Below are positions 38,969 to 53,599 of a stretch of 64,000 nucleotides of DNA, piece by piece. The translations under genes were made by a program, and so were the position numbers. The stretch is taken from contig DGDZ01000074.1 in the NCBI GenBank assembly GCA_002385705.1, positions 77,677-141,676 on the forward strand, read 5' to 3'. Below the pieces are notes generated by a model. It was not told the DNA's origin and made no database searches. It was given only the letters and a program-made list of their open reading frames with translations. Numbering within the stretch: position 1 is the stretch's first letter; each line of letters begins with the position of its first letter. This DNA comes from Verrucomicrobia subdivision 3 bacterium UBA3939. Its GTDB lineage: Bacteria; Verrucomicrobiota; Verrucomicrobiia; Limisphaerales; UBA3939.

Positions 38969-39006
38969 GGGACAATTCTCGACGCATATGCGCGCGGAAT
39001 TGTCCC
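38969..39006. repeat. 38-bp palindromic element, copy 1
   Basis: GGGACAATTC-TCGACGCATATGCGCGCG-GAATTGTCCC: 10-bp perfect outer stems and an inner CGCATATGCG palindrome. Confidence 0.85.
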
Positions 39007-48134: not shown

Positions 48135-48575
48135 ATGCGAACAACTATTTCCCTCCTGGTTCTGGCTGTGGCCGCCACGATGGTGACGGGCTGCGCCAAA
48201 GTCGAACGCAAGTTTGGCCGCGGCATGGCCAATACCCTGGAAATCCTCCGCGGCGGAGAGTTTCGCCGGACCGTCGAGCAGGCGGCGCTCTGGGATACGC
48301 CGGATTACGCCTATACGACGGGTGTCATTCGCGGCGTCAATCGCACACTCGCCCGCACGGGCATCGGCATTTATGAAATCATCACGGCACCCTTGCCGCC
48401 CTACGATCCCATCCTGACCGACTACTTTGCGCCGGGCCCGGTGTATCCGGACAACTACGTGCCCGGTGTCGTGGCCGATTCCCTGTTCGCCACAGACACT
48501 TCCATCGGTTTCAGCGGCGGCGATGTGATACCGTTCATGCCGGGCAGCCGATTCCGGATTTTTGACGTGCACTGA
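48135..48575 (+). CDS. lipoprotein resembling the exosortase-system-associated TIGR04073 family
   Basis: Lipobox VTGC, then KFGRGMANTLEILRGGE... and RTGIGIYEIITAPLPPYDPIL, which match my recollection of that family's K.GRG..N and G.YE..TFP.P blocks. Confidence 0.55.
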   Translation: MRTTISLLVLAVAATMVTGCAKVERKFGRGMANTLEILRGGEFRRTVEQAALWDTPDYAYTTGVIRGVNRTLARTGIGIYEIITAPLPPYDPILTDYFAPGPVYPDNYVPGVVADSLFATDTSIGFSGGDVIPFMPGSRFRIFDVH

Positions 48576-48595
48576 TCGGCTCAGCCGCAACTTTG

Positions 48596-48630
48596 AGCCA
48601 GCCTCGAATGCGTTCGAGGTTGGCTTTTTT
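48596..48630 (+). terminator. rho-independent terminator
   Basis: 13-bp stem AGCCAGCCTCGAA / TTCGAGGTTGGCT (one G-U pair), 4-nt loop TGCG, then a T6 run; 20 nt after the stop at 48575. Confidence 0.65.
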
Positions 48631-48677
48631 GTTGGAATGCCCATCATCCTGCCAGCCGGTGCCTGCCATCGGCCACG

Positions 48678-49550
48678 ATGATCCGAAGAGAATCACCCTG
48701 CAAAGTCAACCTGCTGCTGAACATCCTGGGAAAACGACCGGATGGCTTTCACGAGCTGGAAACCGTGATGCATCCGGTGCGGCTTTCGGATGAATTGACC
48801 TTTGAGCGCTGCGGTTCGGGCATTCACCTGACCTGCAGCGATCCCGCCCTGCCGACCGACTCCGCCAACCTGGTGTATCGCGCCGCGCAGAGCTTCCTTG
48901 AAGCTTCGAAGGCGGGAGACGGCGTGCGGATTGTTCTGGAAAAGCGGTTGCCGTTGGCCGCGGGTCTTGGCGGCGGAAGCGCCAATGCGGCGATTACCTT
49001 GACCGCGCTGAACGACCTCTTCGGAACGCCCCTGGCGGAAGACCGGATCCAGGCCCTGGCGGCGTCGCTGGGGTCGGATGTGCCGTTCTTTCTGCAGGAC
49101 CGCCCGGCGCTGGCGACCGGCCGCGGGGAGCGCATCGAACCCCTGGATCCCTTTCCCGCGCTGCGAAACACCGCGTTCTTCCTCGTTCACCCGGGCTTTG
49201 GGATTTCCACAGCCTGGGCGTACCAGTCGCTCAAGGATTTTCCTTCAGCGCTGAACGGCACGCCGGGAAGGGCGCGCCAATTGATCGCCGCTTTGCAGGA
49301 CGCCACACTCGATCGGACCGCGTCGCTGTTCTACAACTCGCTCGAAGCGCCGGCGCTCCGGAAGTATCCCATCCTGGAGATCTACCAGGAGTTCCTCAGG
49401 GAGAACGGCGCGCTGGCGACGCTCATGTCCGGCAGCGGTTCGACGACCTTTGCGATTTTCGATAGTGTGGACCGCGCCCGGGGTGTGGTGGAACCGTTCA
49501 AAGCGCGATTCGGCGAAAGCTGCTGGATTGCCGTCGTGCCGGTTTCATAG
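48678..49550 (+). CDS. ispE: 4-diphosphocytidyl-2-C-methyl-D-erythritol kinase
   Basis: KVNLLLNILGKRPDGFHELETVM and the GHMP kinase motif GLGGGSANAA. Confidence 0.9.
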   Translation: MIRRESPCKVNLLLNILGKRPDGFHELETVMHPVRLSDELTFERCGSGIHLTCSDPALPTDSANLVYRAAQSFLEASKAGDGVRIVLEKRLPLAAGLGGGSANAAITLTALNDLFGTPLAEDRIQALAASLGSDVPFFLQDRPALATGRGERIEPLDPFPALRNTAFFLVHPGFGISTAWAYQSLKDFPSALNGTPGRARQLIAALQDATLDRTASLFYNSLEAPALRKYPILEIYQEFLRENGALATLMSGSGSTTFAIFDSVDRARGVVEPFKARFGESCWIAVVPVS

Positions 49551-49584
49551 CACCGACCCGCCGCAGTTCTGGCCCCCGTTACTT

Positions 49585-49622
49585 GGGACAATTCCGCGCG
49601 CATATGCGACAGGAATTGTCCC
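49585..49622. repeat. 38-bp palindromic element, copy 2
   Basis: GGGACAATTC-CGCGCGCATATGCGACAG-GAATTGTCCC. The core is the reverse complement of the copy 1 core apart from its last 4 nt. Confidence 0.85.
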
Positions 49623-49681
49623 AACGGAATTGCCAAGCGCCTTGGCCTGTGATCCTTACGAAAACCCGCCTCCTTCAGCGC

Positions 49682-49719
49682 GGGACAATTCTGCGCGCAT
49701 ATGCGACAAGAATTGTCCC
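49682..49719. repeat. 38-bp palindromic element, copy 3
   Basis: GGGACAATTC-TGCGCGCATATGCGACAA-GAATTGTCCC; 59 nt after copy 2. Confidence 0.85.
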
Positions 49720-49753
49720 GGTTGTGGGGCGGTTTTATGGGCCTAATTGAGCA

Positions 49754-49781
49754 TTGACCTGCACCCGGGAATGGCTAGATT
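49754..49781 (+). promoter_or_regulatory. candidate sigma70-type promoter (TTGACC, 16 nt, TAGATT)
   Basis: TTGACC at 49754-49759 and TAGATT at 49776-49781. Would start a transcript near 49788, upstream of the uORF/attenuator. Confidence 0.4.
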
Positions 49782-49793
49782 CACGTCCGACTC

Positions 49794-49889
49794 ATGAAGC
49801 TGAACATCGCCCATCTGAATTGGCTGCCGGTAGATCCGGCGGCGATGCGCCTTTGGCGCGTAGCGGGCGGTGGGAGCACAGAGTCATAG
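49794..49889 (+). CDS. 31-codon upstream ORF in the EamA leader (candidate leader peptide)
   Basis: Translated by hand: MKLNIAHLNWLPVDPAAMRLWRVAGGGSTES*. Its GGC GGT GGG codons are the antiterminator strand. No obvious SD. Confidence 0.2.
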   Translation: MKLNIAHLNWLPVDPAAMRLWRVAGGGSTES

Positions 49890-49942
49890 GCCAGCAACAT
49901 TTTTTAAGAGCCCACCGCTGGATTACGGCGGTGGGTTTTTTT
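49866..49942 (+). promoter_or_regulatory. mutually exclusive antiterminator/terminator structure
   Basis: GGCGGTGGG occurs twice (49866-49874 and 49927-49935). Either copy can pair with CCCACCGC (49911-49918). Only the downstream pairing is followed by a T7 run. Confidence 0.5.
49911..49942 (+). terminator. rho-independent terminator 40 nt upstream of the EamA start
   Basis: Stem CCCACCGC / GCGGTGGG (8 GC-rich bp), 9-nt loop, T7 run at 49936-49942. Confidence 0.65.
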
Positions 49943-49981
49943 ATCTGCCTTTTATCTGCCGGCACGGACCGGCAATCGAAC

Positions 49982-50977
49982 ATGACAAAAGACGAACAAG
50001 TGGAACAAGCGCAGCCCGGGCGGGACGGGCCGCCCTTTGGCTGGGTCGTAGCCGCGTTTGCCGCCATTTACGTGATCTGGGGATCCACCTACCTGGGCAT
50101 CCGGTACGGTGTGGAGACGATTCCGCCCTTTCTCATGGCGGGGTCGCGGTTTCTGGTGGCGGGATTGATCCTCTATGCGTTCGCGTTCGTGCGTTCCGGC
50201 GAGAGGCCGTCGCTCCGGCAATGGCGCGTTGCCGCGGTGGCGGGAGCGCTGATGCTGCTTCTCGGCAACGGAGGCGTTACCTGGGCTGAGCAGGTGATTC
50301 CGTCCAGTGTGGCGGCGCTGCTGGTTGCCCTGACACCGCTCTGGATGGTGCTGATGGATTGGGCCCGCCCCCGGGGTGTGCGACCGTCCAACAGCGTGAT
50401 CCAGGGGCTGGTGGTTGGTTTCCTGGGCGTGGCCGTGCTCACGAGTGGACAGGGGCGCGGGCAGGGAACGTTCTACGCGTGGGGCGTGGCGGCGCTGATG
50501 CTGGCGTCGATGTGCTGGGCGTGGGGTTCGCTCTACACCCGGCACGCGGACAAGCCGAAATCCGCCCTGTTGTCCGTGGCGATGCAGATGATCACCGGCG
50601 GCGCGCTCCTGATGCTGGCCGGTGTACTCGCCGGAGAACTTCACTCCTTTTCATGGAGCCGGATCTCAACCGGTTCGGCGGTGGCGTGGCTGTACCTGAC
50701 GATTGCGGGTTCATTGATCGGTTTTCCCGCCTACGTGTGGCTGTTGCAGGTGAGCACGCCCGCCCGCGTGTCCACTTATGCCTATGTCAATCCGTTCATC
50801 GCCGTGCTGCTCGGGTGCACGATCGGTCGTGAGCCTCTTTCATCAAACCTTTTCATCGCCGGTGCCCTGATCATTGTTGCTGTCGCATTGATCGTGCGTG
50901 GCAGGTCAAAGCCGTCGCCGAAGGCGGACCTGGTGATCGCTGCCGGGGCGCGTTCGACGGAAGTCCCGGGCCGTTGA
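49982..50977 (+). CDS. EamA/DMT family transporter
   Basis: Ten-TM duplicated EamA layout with IWGSTYLGIRY near the N-terminus. Start set at MTKDEQ (49982); the tracked start 49754 runs through the leader. Confidence 0.85.
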   Translation: MTKDEQVEQAQPGRDGPPFGWVVAAFAAIYVIWGSTYLGIRYGVETIPPFLMAGSRFLVAGLILYAFAFVRSGERPSLRQWRVAAVAGALMLLLGNGGVTWAEQVIPSSVAALLVALTPLWMVLMDWARPRGVRPSNSVIQGLVVGFLGVAVLTSGQGRGQGTFYAWGVAALMLASMCWAWGSLYTRHADKPKSALLSVAMQMITGGALLMLAGVLAGELHSFSWSRISTGSAVAWLYLTIAGSLIGFPAYVWLLQVSTPARVSTYAYVNPFIAVLLGCTIGREPLSSNLFIAGALIIVAVALIVRGRSKPSPKADLVIAAGARSTEVPGR

Positions 50978-50978
50978 T

Positions 50979-52430
50979 ATGCGAGGGCATTTGACCAGAC
51001 GATTCCGATTGTGGCGTCGCGAAGCGCGTCCGACGCTGGCGCTCGCGTTTCCCATCATGGGCGGGATGCTCAGCCAGATGCTGATGGGGCTGGCTGACAC
51101 GATCATGGTGGGGCGGGTGGGCGTGGTTCCGCTGGCGGCCTGTTCGCTCGTCAATGCCGTGGCCCATCTGCCTTTGGTTTTCGGCTTCGGACTGCTGTCG
51201 GCGATAGCGGTGCTCACGGCGCAGGCGTACGGTGCGCGCCGGCCCGACGATGCGGCCCAGGTGCTTCGGCACGGACTGTTGATGTCGGTGCTGATGGGGC
51301 TGGCAGCGGCGCTGTCGCTGATTGGCGTCCGTCCGTGGCTGGCGGTCCTGCGGCAGCCGCCCGAGGTGGTTGAGGCGGCGGACACGTATCTCATTCTCTT
51401 TGCGGCTTCCATGTTTCCGGCGCTGGTGGCGCATGGGATGAAGCAGTTCAGCGAGGCGTTGAAACATCCCTGGGCGCCGACGGTGGTTCTGCTCGGCGGA
51501 GTCGGGTTGAACGTGCTGTTGAACTGGGTGTTGATCTACGGACATTGGGGCGCGCCGGCAATGGGGCTGGACGGAGCGGGCTGGGCAACGCTTCTGGCGC
51601 GAAGCGGGATGGCGCTGGCGATGCTGGGTTATGTGCTGGTTGCCGCGCCGTTGCGGGCCTACCGGCCGGCGCGCTGGAGCGGGCGCCTGGAATGGCAACG
51701 CCTCCGCGGTCTGCTGGCGCTCGGGGTTCCGGTCGCCTTGCAGCATTTGCTCGAGGTGAGCGCGTTCGTCTTCGCGGCGTTAATGATGGGCTGGATCGGT
51801 TCGGAGGCGATTGCCGCGCATCAGATTGCCATGACGTGCGCGGCCACAACATTCATGTTTCCGCTTGGGATCGGGATGGCGGTGTGCATCCGCGTCGGCC
51901 ACGCCTACGGCGCCGCGCAATTCTCCCGGATGCGGCGAATTGGTTTCGGGGGCGTCGGGATGGCCGCCGCGATCATGGCTGTCAGTGGGGTTCTCTTCAT
52001 GACAGCGGGGCGTCCCATTGCGGGACTGTTTATCACGGCACCCGAGGTGCTGAACCTGGCCGCGCAATTGCTGATTGTGGCTGCGATCTTTCAGATCGCC
52101 GACGGCGTGCAGGTTGTTGCGATATCCGCGCTGCGCGGGCTGAACGACGTGCGGCATCCGGCTGCGATTGCCGGGCTGGCGTATTGGGTGCTGGCACTGC
52201 CGGTGGGTTCCTTGCTGGCGTTCCGCTTCGGACTGGGCGCGATGGGGATCTGGATCGGGCTGGCTGCCGGGCTGGGCGTGGCGGCGGCAGGTTTGTCGTG
52301 GCGCTTTCACGCAAAGACCGGCTGGGCGGCGTGTCACTGGGTGCGCATGACAAACAAATGCTCGCCAAGCGCCGATCAAGATGGGACTCTGGCGCCGTTG
52401 TTGCCCGAGAAACCAGGCACACAAGCATGA
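50979..52430 (+). CDS. MATE family efflux transporter
   Basis: 12-TM MATE layout with PIMGGMLSQMLMGLADTIMVGRVG near the N-terminus. Starts 1 nt after the EamA stop. Confidence 0.85.
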   Translation: MRGHLTRRFRLWRREARPTLALAFPIMGGMLSQMLMGLADTIMVGRVGVVPLAACSLVNAVAHLPLVFGFGLLSAIAVLTAQAYGARRPDDAAQVLRHGLLMSVLMGLAAALSLIGVRPWLAVLRQPPEVVEAADTYLILFAASMFPALVAHGMKQFSEALKHPWAPTVVLLGGVGLNVLLNWVLIYGHWGAPAMGLDGAGWATLLARSGMALAMLGYVLVAAPLRAYRPARWSGRLEWQRLRGLLALGVPVALQHLLEVSAFVFAALMMGWIGSEAIAAHQIAMTCAATTFMFPLGIGMAVCIRVGHAYGAAQFSRMRRIGFGGVGMAAAIMAVSGVLFMTAGRPIAGLFITAPEVLNLAAQLLIVAAIFQIADGVQVVAISALRGLNDVRHPAAIAGLAYWVLALPVGSLLAFRFGLGAMGIWIGLAAGLGVAAAGLSWRFHAKTGWAACHWVRMTNKCSPSADQDGTLAPLLPEKPGTQA

Positions 52431-53599
52431 GCAGACTATTGAAGCCGACCAACCTTCTCCGGAACATCTGGCTGGTTGTCTGTTTGTTGCCGGGGATTCT
52501 TTCACTGCCGCTGACTGCCGCCGAGCCTTCGGTGAAGACACCGTCCACCTCCCACCGATGGTTGCTGGTGGTGGACACGTCGCGCGCGATGGAGCGCCGG
52601 AGCGAAGCGGTGCAGCAGATCGCGTCGAATCTTGTTGTCAGCGCGATGAACGGCCAGGCGCAACCGGGGGATACGCTCGGCGTCTGGACGTTCAACGAGG
52701 AGCTGCAGACGGGGCGTTTTCCGCTGCAGACGTTCACGTCCAACAACATCCCGGCGGCGCGCCGGCTGGCGGGCTTCCTTCGGGCGCAACCGCATGAGGG
52801 CAGCGGCCGGCTTCCCAATGTGATGCCCACCTTGATGCACCTGGTGCAGTCGTCCGACTTCATCACGGTCATCATCCTTTCCGACGGATCGTCGGAGATC
52901 GTCGGGACGCCTTTTGACGAGAAGATCAACGCGAGCTTTCGTTCGTGGCGGCGGGAACAGGCGAGAGGACAGATGCCCTTCGTCACGCTGCTGCGGGCGA
53001 GTCTGGGGAACGTAACGCAGTACGCGGTGAGCACGCCGCCGTTTCCGCTCGAGATGCCGCCGTTGCAGGAGGCGCTGGTGCAGGCCCGCAACGAGGCGGT
53101 CCGCGCCGTGGAACCTGTAAAGGCGCAGCCCCGGCCCACTCCACCGCCGCTCATCGTTTCCGGAAGAAAGCCTTCGACCAATGTGACGCAGGCCGTGCCT
53201 CAACCCGATCCACAGCCGCTCAAGGTCGTTGAATCAACGCCGACAAACTCTTTGCCTGAACGCCCGGCGGTTGCCGCGGCGCCCGCGCCTTCCGCGCAGA
53301 CCTCCGCTGTTGCTGCGGCCGAGACTCAGCCGAAGCCGGTGGAGCCGACTCCGCCTTCCGAACAAACGGTTGAAACATCGCCCGGCGTGACGCCCGTTGC
53401 CGCGCGGGCTTCCGCGCCTCAGCCCGGTGCGAACGCCGGTCCGGCTCCGTCCGCCGGCCGCATGAACAACGCAGTGCTGGCGGGAATTGTATTGACGGTG
53501 GCGCTGAGCGGAGTGGTTCTCATCCTTCTCATGCGGGGACGCCATTCAAGAAAACACGCGAGTCTCATCACGCGGTCGCTGGAGAATCGCCGCCAGTGA
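52427..53599 (+). CDS. secreted VWA-like domain protein with Pro-rich linker and C-terminal TM anchor
   Basis: Signal-like N-terminus; WLLVVDTSRAM (partial MIDAS DxS) and ITVIILSDGS strand pattern; Pro/Ala-rich segment; AVLAGIVLTVALSGVVLILLMRGRH anchor. ATGA overlap with the MATE stop. Confidence 0.5.
   Translation: MSRLLKPTNLLRNIWLVVCLLPGILSLPLTAAEPSVKTPSTSHRWLLVVDTSRAMERRSEAVQQIASNLVVSAMNGQAQPGDTLGVWTFNEELQTGRFPLQTFTSNNIPAARRLAGFLRAQPHEGSGRLPNVMPTLMHLVQSSDFITVIILSDGSSEIVGTPFDEKINASFRSWRREQARGQMPFVTLLRASLGNVTQYAVSTPPFPLEMPPLQEALVQARNEAVRAVEPVKAQPRPTPPPLIVSGRKPSTNVTQAVPQPDPQPLKVVESTPTNSLPERPAVAAAPAPSAQTSAVAAAETQPKPVEPTPPSEQTVETSPGVTPVAARASAPQPGANAGPAPSAGRMNNAVLAGIVLTVALSGVVLILLMRGRHSRKHASLITRSLENRRQ

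Follow-up and report, generated by a model that had tools for sequence, protein, structure and literature searches.

The leader that precedes the gene for a YedA-like transporter of the EamA family in Verrucomicrobia subdivision 3 bacterium UBA3939 is probably a ribosome-dependent (leader-peptide) transcription attenuator of the four-segment trp type. It occupies positions 49754-49981 of the stretch analyzed here, 64,000 nucleotides (nt) of contig DGDZ01000074.1, which we call the window and to which coordinates refer unless another locus is named. The leader combines a promoter-like pair, an upstream open reading frame (uORF) and an intrinsic terminator, with strands that can pair in alternative ways, and its layout is conserved in 23 homologous leaders. 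The uORF also contains a conserved tryptophan (Trp) codon. The full proposition, in which this codon is the sensor of an attenuator that controls the YedA-like EamA gene, a NorM-like MATE gene and a third gene, ORF3, has in our judgment an even chance of being right.

The anatomy of the leader in the window is summarized in Table 1. The TTGACC/TAGATT pair is the single promoter-like match across 48500-51000 (2.5 kb; 0.4 expected), and transcription would start near 49788, giving the uORF a 5' untranslated region of about 6 nt with no Shine-Dalgarno sequence. The sequence GGCGGTGGG occurs twice, at 49866-49874 within the uORF and at 49927-49935, and its complement CCCACCGC lies between the copies at 49911-49918. 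The first copy belongs to region 2, given as GGCGGUGGG for the leaders generally, which may pair with region 1 on its 5' side, pair with region 3, or release region 3 to region 4. The hairpin formed by regions 3 and 4 has a 15-bp stem (-26.2 kcal/mol) and runs into seven T residues. In the minimum free energy (MFE) fold, the region 1 strand pairs with GGGCGGTG (49865-72) and encloses two small hairpins. With region 1 added, the leader has four segments and three pairings (1:2, 2:3 and 3:4), as in the trp attenuator. The leader (49786-49945) has an MFE of -78.4 kcal/mol, compared with -53.1 +/- 4.2 in shuffled sequences (z = -6.0), and 0/200 shuffles equalled it. The stop codon of the uORF is 12 nt 3' of region 2. 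An initial annotation, made from the letters and a list of open reading frames (ORFs), had pointed out the promoter pair, the 31-codon uORF, the duplicated 9-mer with its complement, the downstream hairpin with its T run, the two small hairpins, and the gene junctions (EamA start, 1-nt gap, ATGA overlap); all of these were recovered where it had placed them. Region 1 and the conserved Trp codon at 49854-49856 are additions of the present analysis.

Table 1. Features of the attenuator-like leader and its neighboring genes
Feature	Position	Strand	Basis	Remarks
ispE	48678-49550	+	gene list and profile search	
Promoter-like pair	49754-49781	+	promoter scan and homologous leaders	-35 TTGACC 49754-49759; spacer 16 nt; -10 TAGATT 49776-49781
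Leader uORF	49794-49889	+		ATG 49794 to TAG 49887-49889; 31 codons; peptide MKLNIAHLNWLPVDPAAMRLWRVAGGGSTES
Region 1	49805-49812	+	MFE folds and alignment	CATCGCCC; anti-antiterminator strand; uORF codons 4-7; partner region 2
Trp codon W10	49821-49823	+		kept in closest sub-clade only
Two internal hairpins	49823-49861	+	fold	49823-49843 and 49845-49861; inside region 1:region 2 helix
Trp codon W21	49854-49856	+		context A-x-W; 12 nt 5' of region 2; proposed stall site
Region 2	49865-49874	+		G-GGCGGTGGG; codes Gly-Gly-Gly; partner region 1 or region 3
A/C-rich spacer	49890-49905	+	leader alignment	past uORF stop; consensus TAG-AYCAACAA
Intrinsic terminator	49906-49942	+	terminator scan and fold	region 3 arm 49906-49920 (core CCCACCGC 49911-18); loop 49921-49925; region 4 arm 49926-49940 (core GGCGGTGGG 49927-35); T7 49936-49942
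EamA-family transporter, YedA-like	49982-50977	+	Pfam PF00892, E = 5e-32	331 aa; regulated gene in proposed reading
NorM-like MATE efflux transporter	50979-52430	+	Pfam/NCBIfam	1-nt gap after EamA
ORF3	52427-53599	+		ATGA overlap with MATE
ORF of ~60 aa (other loci)	L002 3834-3983; L003 1335-1529; L006 3786-3971; L143 3882-3968			also in L104, L196, L142, L153, L187

Homologous leaders were collected from three sources: 80 genome loci with EamA homologues, a metagenome scan with the terminator pattern CCCACCGC-N4-12-GCGGTGGGTTTT, which is blind to EamA, and further contigs encoding EamA homologues. Among the 80 loci, the leader was found in L001, L002, L003, L006, L013, L017, L028, L029, L050 and L066, which are Verrucomicrobia only; it was absent upstream of the EamA homologues of Gemmatimonadota, Acidobacteriota, Chloroflexota and Planctomycetota. 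The terminator-only scan yielded six leaders with an EamA homologue as the next gene (L085, L099, L102, L104, L190 and L200), along with L084, L133 and L092, whose contigs end before the next gene. Four closer relatives came from the EamA-homologue contigs (L203-L206), and L201 duplicates the L001 leader. An EamA/YedA-like gene follows in all of the 23 homologous leaders whose contig reaches that far, and all leaders with a taxonomic label are from Verrucomicrobia. The terminator hairpin is present in every homologue, a TTGAC -35 box stands at the equivalent position in 21 of the 23, and the TAGATT box is identical in L001 and L203. The leader invariably shares the strand of EamA and lies directly 5' of it or of a small ORF that is coupled to it. 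Whether orthologous leaders keep the repeat and the uORF had been set beforehand as a test of the attenuator prediction, and the 23 leaders keep both.

The uORF spans 29-47 codons in all 23 leaders and ends 19-34 nt before region 3. It begins 7-23 nt past the -10 box, with ATG in 11 of 13 lineages and GTG in the remaining two, and no Shine-Dalgarno sequence is visible. In the 17 leaders compared, the uORF frame contains no internal stop codons, while the other two frames have 39 and 12. An ATG no more than 20 nt from the start of the transcript, together with an ORF end 15-40 nt before region 3, arises in 1-5% of dinucleotide shuffles per lineage, and the combined chance of this layout over the lineages is about 1e-17. 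The frame of region 2 is constant despite the differing uORF lengths, and the distance from the end of region 2 to the stop codon is 5-14 nt in the 23 leaders, which places the stop codon where a terminating ribosome would mask region 2. Since the stop codons are mixed (UAG, UGA and UAA), control specific to a release factor is unlikely. Among five close relatives, variable sites are spread evenly over the three codon positions (22, 23 and 23), with synonymous fractions of 0.17, 0.16 and 0.18 by frame. Such equal variation indicates that the peptide sequence is not under selection and fits a leader peptide whose sequence follows from RNA pairing; after this negative result, a conserved arrest peptide was no longer considered. 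Some of the uORFs have been called as proteins by gene callers, and a leader-peptide profile run against a protein database returned only 6 called peptides.

The competing helices were evaluated in a 6-sequence alignment of the window's clade. Helix 1:2 (18-25/105-112) is paired in 91.7% of cells and includes two pairs altered on both sides, a G-C to A-U exchange in L206 and a change at position 25:105; most leaders also have it in their MFE fold. For helix 2:3 the paired share is 98.1%, and one exchange is compensatory (G-C to A-U; GGCGAUGGG with CCCAUCGCC in L205); for helix 3:4 it is 98.5%, with wobble changes only. Sliding the partner strand by 1-3 columns lowers the pairing to 31-74%. Because a broader MAFFT alignment was misaligned in region 2, duplex energies were used for the wider set of leaders, and a leader's own region 3 forms a better duplex than that of another type in 17 of 19 cases. 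Region 2 varies with the terminator type: GCGGUGGG accompanies CCCACCGC in 13 leaders, CCGGCGGG or CAGGCGGG accompanies CCCGCUGG in L017 and L013, and other variants occur in L028, L050 and L066. The 2:3 pairing shifts with the terminator sequence, and the exchanges in L013 and L017 count as compensatory.

We also computed constrained folds of the window leader with a ribosome placed at set positions. With no ribosome, region 2 is locked (-57.5 kcal/mol), and region 3 remains available. A ribosome held at either Trp codon, W21 or W10, allows an 8-9 bp helix between regions 2 and 3 before region 4 exists, whereas with a ribosome at the stop codon the terminator alone forms. By folding, stalling at any point between about codon 5 and codon 21 releases region 2.

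In the mechanism we propose, transcription would begin at about 49788 and a ribosome would load onto the nearly leaderless uORF. If the uORF were not translated, regions 1 and 2 would close the two-hairpin domain, helix 3:4 would form, and transcription would terminate at the T run. A ribosome that reached the stop codon would mask region 2, and the terminator would form again. A ribosome stalled inside the uORF before region 2 would block the 1:2 pairing, and helix 2:3 would form once region 3 had been made; this helix would prevent the terminator, and the exporter genes would be transcribed. The likeliest stall site would be W21, joined in the window's clade by W10, where a halted ribosome would mask region 1. 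The signal would then be the supply of charged tRNA-Trp, lowered by Trp shortage or by blocked charging of tRNA-Trp. The Gly codons of region 2 were rejected as the sensor, given that stalling there and normal termination would both mask region 2.

Several observations single out the Trp codon. Each of the 15 non-redundant leaders has one or more Trp codons, a result matched by 0 of 1000 shuffles, and TGG occurs 25 times in the uORF frame versus 13 and 10 times out of frame (z = 4.4). The leaders contain 1-4 Trp codons each and the window uORF two, of which W10 is common to the nearest relatives. The initial annotation was right that no amino acid forms a run in this uORF; the single conserved Trp codon had not been listed there. 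Within the window's clade, the A-x-W codon is invariant, the codon before TGG varies (GCC, GCG, GCA, GTT, GTA, CTT), and the codons flanking the conserved Trp vary at synonymous positions. The Trp codon lies 12-38 nt 5' of region 2, and 9-19 codons separate it from the stop codon. Its position relative to the predicted hairpins is not constant, so RNA structure by itself does not account for it. By analogy with the Trp codons of trpL, a ribosome held at W21 would abut region 2. Leaders with the same terminator recovered elsewhere in the metagenome scan serve as a calibration: they carry textbook runs of codons, the last of which is 1-2 codons short of region 2. Links to the Trp pathway are two. 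In L066, a trpG/pabA-like glutamine amidotransferase gene follows EamA by about 22 nt, behind the leader, the sole such case among the 80 loci; and L196 has a related A-V-W...G-G-G leader before an operon with 3-dehydroquinate synthase (NF004852, 440 bits against a cutoff of 333). We favor stalling at the Trp codon because this codon is kept, because it is near region 2, and because of the calibrating codon-run leaders, the L196 leader and the trpG gene of L066. The sensed event is thus probably, with moderate confidence, a shortage of charged tRNA-Trp.

These codon-run leaders, all on the same terminator chassis, are of several kinds. Cysteine leaders such as MSASSILRAVCCCTCCCCACVCTGAGRLLT have runs of 8-11 Cys codons with the terminator CCCACCGCCAG...CTGGCGGTGGGTTTT and precede sulfite-reductase-like genes. 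They occur at L107, L126 and more than 60 other metagenome loci (e.g., L082, L086, L090, L094, L105), have no Rfam match, and appear to be an uncurated family of cysteine attenuators. Val/Leu-rich leaders stand before ilvB-/ilvC-like genes, and Thr- or Thr/Lys-rich leaders before aspartokinase-/asd-like genes; none of them is in Rfam (both kinds together: L148, L083, L108, L124; L103, L125, L168, L081, L097, L111, L137, L175). Leaders with one conserved Trp (e.g., MFGPFAITDFSCPPSKRWCVGFAMFNGEARSAGKGTSS) precede the gene of a CCA-adding enzyme (PolyA_pol + HD) in L142, L143, L153 and L187, and also in L156, which suggests that a tRNA-repair gene is attenuated via a Trp codon at these loci.

A number of points weigh against the attenuator reading or against Trp as its signal. 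There is no Shine-Dalgarno sequence before the uORF, so we infer its translation from ORF conservation alone, and no codon-position bias of the peptide was found among the five close relatives. Covariation in the 6-sequence alignment is sparse and not significant against shuffle controls, and the pairing of regions 2 and 3 is weak in L028 and L029. Equilibrium favors the terminator over the antiterminator; control must therefore be kinetic, like that of classical attenuators. Concerning the signal, the leaders have a single conserved Trp codon rather than a codon run, and L102 has Leu at the homologous Trp site and lacks any Trp codon 5' of region 2. The targets are exporters and not biosynthetic genes, and induction with uncharged tRNA-Trp lacks an obvious logic for a Trp exporter.

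The main rival retains the same attenuator and lets it respond to any slowdown of translation in the first two thirds of the uORF, caused by ribosome-targeting antibiotics or general stress, so that both pumps would be induced and the Trp codon would be a slow codon or a by-product. It draws strength from the targets, which are drug/metabolite exporters (YedA-like EamA and NorM-like MATE), from the absence of a codon run, and from the wide range of stall positions (about codon 5 to 21) that suffice to free region 2 by folding; bmrCD (PMC4191407), vmlR (PMC9226507) and the whiB7 uORF (PMC10274678) are precedents. What it leaves unexplained is a Trp codon kept in every lineage amid drifting neighbor codons. 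Moreover, no conserved arrest motif is evident, the peptide is without amino-acid selection, and MATE is found in only some of the loci. We see this rival as a serious minority possibility. A different alternative is a riboswitch or protein-binding leader, in which helix 1:2 would be the P1 stem of a multi-hairpin aptamer, a ligand or protein would favor the terminator, and the ORF would be incidental. The layout does resemble that of an OFF-riboswitch, with a P1-like helix whose 3' strand also serves the antiterminator, the constraint is at the RNA and not the amino-acid level, and a Shine-Dalgarno sequence is absent. Yet the domain enclosed by helix 1:2 differs from leader to leader in hairpin number, length and sequence (homologues have 2-3 hairpins at the equivalent place, with differing sequences), and invariant columns lie almost all in regions 2-4. 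Were the ORF incidental, the lineages would not all have retained an ATG behind the promoter, the reading frame through indels and a stop 5-14 nt past region 2. Neither the 64-kb window nor any of 13 related loci matched an Rfam 15 family at the gathering threshold, and at E <= 10 the best scores on 49500-50050 were 13-15 bits, driven by the terminator only; T-box, guanidine, ykkC and mepA motifs and known leader families were rejected for this lack of a match. The initial annotation had left the choice between an attenuator and a riboswitch expression platform and had recognized no known riboswitch class. The conserved leaders support its attenuator proposal. An ORF kept across non-homologous lengths, together with the lack of a conserved aptamer core and of an Rfam match, indicates the leader-peptide type, and we consider a riboswitch improbable.

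Less probable still is that the element is an independent small gene, for an sRNA (small RNA) of about 150 nt or a 31-aa protein, that merely adjoins EamA. It would have its own promoter and a strong terminator, some uORFs have been called as proteins, and trans-acting attenuator sRNAs and leader peptides exist (rnTrpL and peTrpL; PMC7298713, PMC7968998). The constant same-strand place 5' of EamA or of the EamA-coupled small ORF speaks against such a gene, as do the lack of peptide sequence conservation and the 2:3 alternative pairing, which would be purposeless in a stand-alone gene. Finally, the hairpin could be the plain terminator of ispE, or the pattern a product of chance in GC-rich DNA. 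The ispE gene is on the same strand and ends at 49550, and GC-rich sequence often has frames that are open by chance (18-42% per frame among shuffles). The terminator, however, lies 360 nt downstream of the ispE end with a promoter in between, and the leader recurs in L201, L203 and L206, behind a different gene or one on the opposite strand. Differing or divergent upstream genes argue that the hairpin is not an ispE terminator, which contradicts what the initial annotation had named as a refuting outcome; the fold statistic (z = -6) and the uORF layout (about 1e-17) stand against chance. Already contradicted by conservation, this last explanation is hardly credible. The element shows every feature of a leader-peptide attenuator that the sequence allows to be checked: a uORF, an intrinsic terminator, an antiterminator on a shared strand, region 1 and the stop-codon position. 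Of the amino-acid biosynthetic subclass (trp/his/leu/thr) it lacks the biosynthetic target, and in place of a codon run it has the one conserved Trp codon.

Among the closest known arrangements is that of E. coli trpL, which has four segments, Trp codons abutting region 2, and a terminating ribosome that masks region 2. With trpL and the his, leu, thr and ilv leaders, the leader studied here shares the 1:2, 2:3 and 3:4 pairings, a uORF spanning region 1, an intrinsic terminator before the first gene, regulatory codons just 5' of region 2, and a stop codon that would let a terminating ribosome mask region 2. It differs from them in having one conserved Trp codon (two in the window) and no tandem run, a 31-codon uORF, two extra hairpins in the 1:2 loop, no Shine-Dalgarno sequence, an exporter as its target, and no match to an Rfam leader family. 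Another comparison is TnaC, which stalls at its stop codon with a fixed W12-D16-P24 spacing and blocks Rho. A single critical Trp within a short leader peptide is the point of likeness; a TnaC-type arrest peptide was rejected on the variable Trp-to-stop distance, the lack of conserved Asp/Pro and the intrinsic terminator. The N-terminus of the L003 peptide, MNHSLNICVTGQKPAMW (MNHSLNICVT), resembles that of E. coli TnaC, MNILHICVTSKW (MNILHICVT); this holds for one leader only and is probably a coincidence.

With respect to efflux targets, ribosome-mediated attenuation of multidrug efflux genes is known from bmrB-bmrCD of Bacillus subtilis (PMC4191407), and the related vmlR is antibiotic-inducible (PMC9226507). 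These systems likewise have a leader peptide and a terminator before an efflux or resistance gene, and in them a stalled ribosome leads to read-through, which is predicted here. They belong to Firmicutes and respond to ribosome-targeting drugs, whereas the window leader has a conserved Trp codon and EamA/MATE pumps. No recognizable arrest motif of the erm/cat/bmrB/vmlR type was found in the leader peptides; the architecture and the efflux target do fit that group. In mycobacteria, ribosomes that stall on the whiB7 uORF under amino-acid starvation or antibiotics prevent termination and thereby induce intrinsic resistance, including efflux (PMC10274678). That system differs in its transcription-factor target, its Ala-rich uORF and its occurrence in Actinobacteria. 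B. subtilis ycbK, "a putative efflux protein", is repressed by Trp-activated TRAP (PMC13170310; PMC3971595, citing Yakhnin 2006). Expression of this putative efflux gene goes up when Trp is low, the polarity predicted for the window leader. The mechanism is different, in that an RNA-binding protein blocks the ribosome-binding site, while the window leader is of the leader-peptide type. YcbK is presumably an EamA-family member; we found no paper that states it.

The genes downstream of the leader offer a few further details. The EamA protein scores 255.5 bits with the NCBIfam YedA equivalog model, slightly below the cutoff of 270, and is identical to an annotated protein of a Verrucomicrobia metagenome-assembled genome, the next relatives being 58-68% identical. 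A MATE gene also follows EamA in L003, L104, L202, L204 and L206, and only some of the loci have one. The ORF3 product combines a signal peptide and a C-terminal membrane anchor with a long Pro-rich linker and the motifs VVDTSRAM and ILSDGS. Its earlier label as a VWA-like protein is not borne out: those motifs were picked by eye, and sequence searches of Pfam, NCBIfam and the PDB gave no match. ORF3 was not seen after EamA in the other loci examined. The upstream neighbors of EamA in Gemmatimonadota, Acidobacteriota, Chloroflexota and other groups are heterogeneous and give no clue to the substrate. In several of the other loci, a conserved ORF of about 60 aa (...YLE(L/I/V)GLPL..A..AA.ADL...), without a Pfam family and absent from the window, stands between the leader terminator and the main gene (Table 1). 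It overlaps the main-gene start by 4 nt where this was checked (L002, L003 and L006), and the main gene behind it is EamA, a phosphodiesterase/3-dehydroquinate synthase pair, or the CCA-adding enzyme.

The surroundings of the leader in the window contain two kinds of repeat. A tandem repeat of TTTTATCTGCC lies immediately 3' of the terminator T run (49939-49960), where homologous leaders carry a conserved TTTTTTGTTTCCC-like tail instead. A 38-nt near-palindrome, GGGACAATTC(C/T)GCGCGCATATGCGACA(G/A)GAATTGTCCC, has three copies in the window (38969-39006 on the minus strand; 49585-49622 and 49682-49719 on the plus strand) versus 0 expected. The two plus-strand copies fall between ispE and the promoter of the leader. 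The repeat could be an element resembling repetitive extragenic palindromes or miniature inverted-repeat transposable elements (REP/MITE-like), or an operator. In addition, the EamA frame is open from a TTG at 49754 through the entire leader (a 407-aa ORF, 49754-50977), and the database protein begins at 49982; automatic annotation could mis-extend EamA across the leader.

Single Trp codons thus precede genes of different kinds: the YedA-like/MATE pair of the window, the CCA-adding enzyme (L142, L143, L153, L187) and the 3-dehydroquinate synthase operon (L196). A speculative extension, which we think unlikely, is that such leaders form a "tRNA-Trp sentinel" regulon of Verrucomicrobia and other soil bacteria, in which stalling at UGG would be coupled to genes outside Trp biosynthesis. 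Under this idea, the exporter would remove compounds that keep tRNA-Trp from being charged, for instance Trp analogues or tryptophanyl-tRNA synthetase inhibitors, and the attenuator, if the idea is true, would be an indirect sensor of toxins or antibiotics.

Leader-peptide attenuation is textbook knowledge for the amino-acid operons of Proteobacteria, Actinobacteria and Firmicutes. A limited literature search found no description of it in Verrucomicrobia or upstream of yedA-like genes. The kind of mechanism is known; as far as this search reached, the host phylum and the target are new for it. The nearly leaderless uORF, the single sentinel Trp codon and the exporter target are its unusual points. 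The unannotated Cys, Val/Leu and Thr attenuators from the metagenome scan could be curated as new families. If the attenuator is confirmed, Verrucomicrobia, a poorly studied phylum, would be seen to use attenuators with nearly leaderless uORFs, and one Trp codon may suffice as a sensor. A widespread YedA-type exporter would then be under the control of translational status, and the leader offers a testable route to the physiological substrate of YedA-like exporters.

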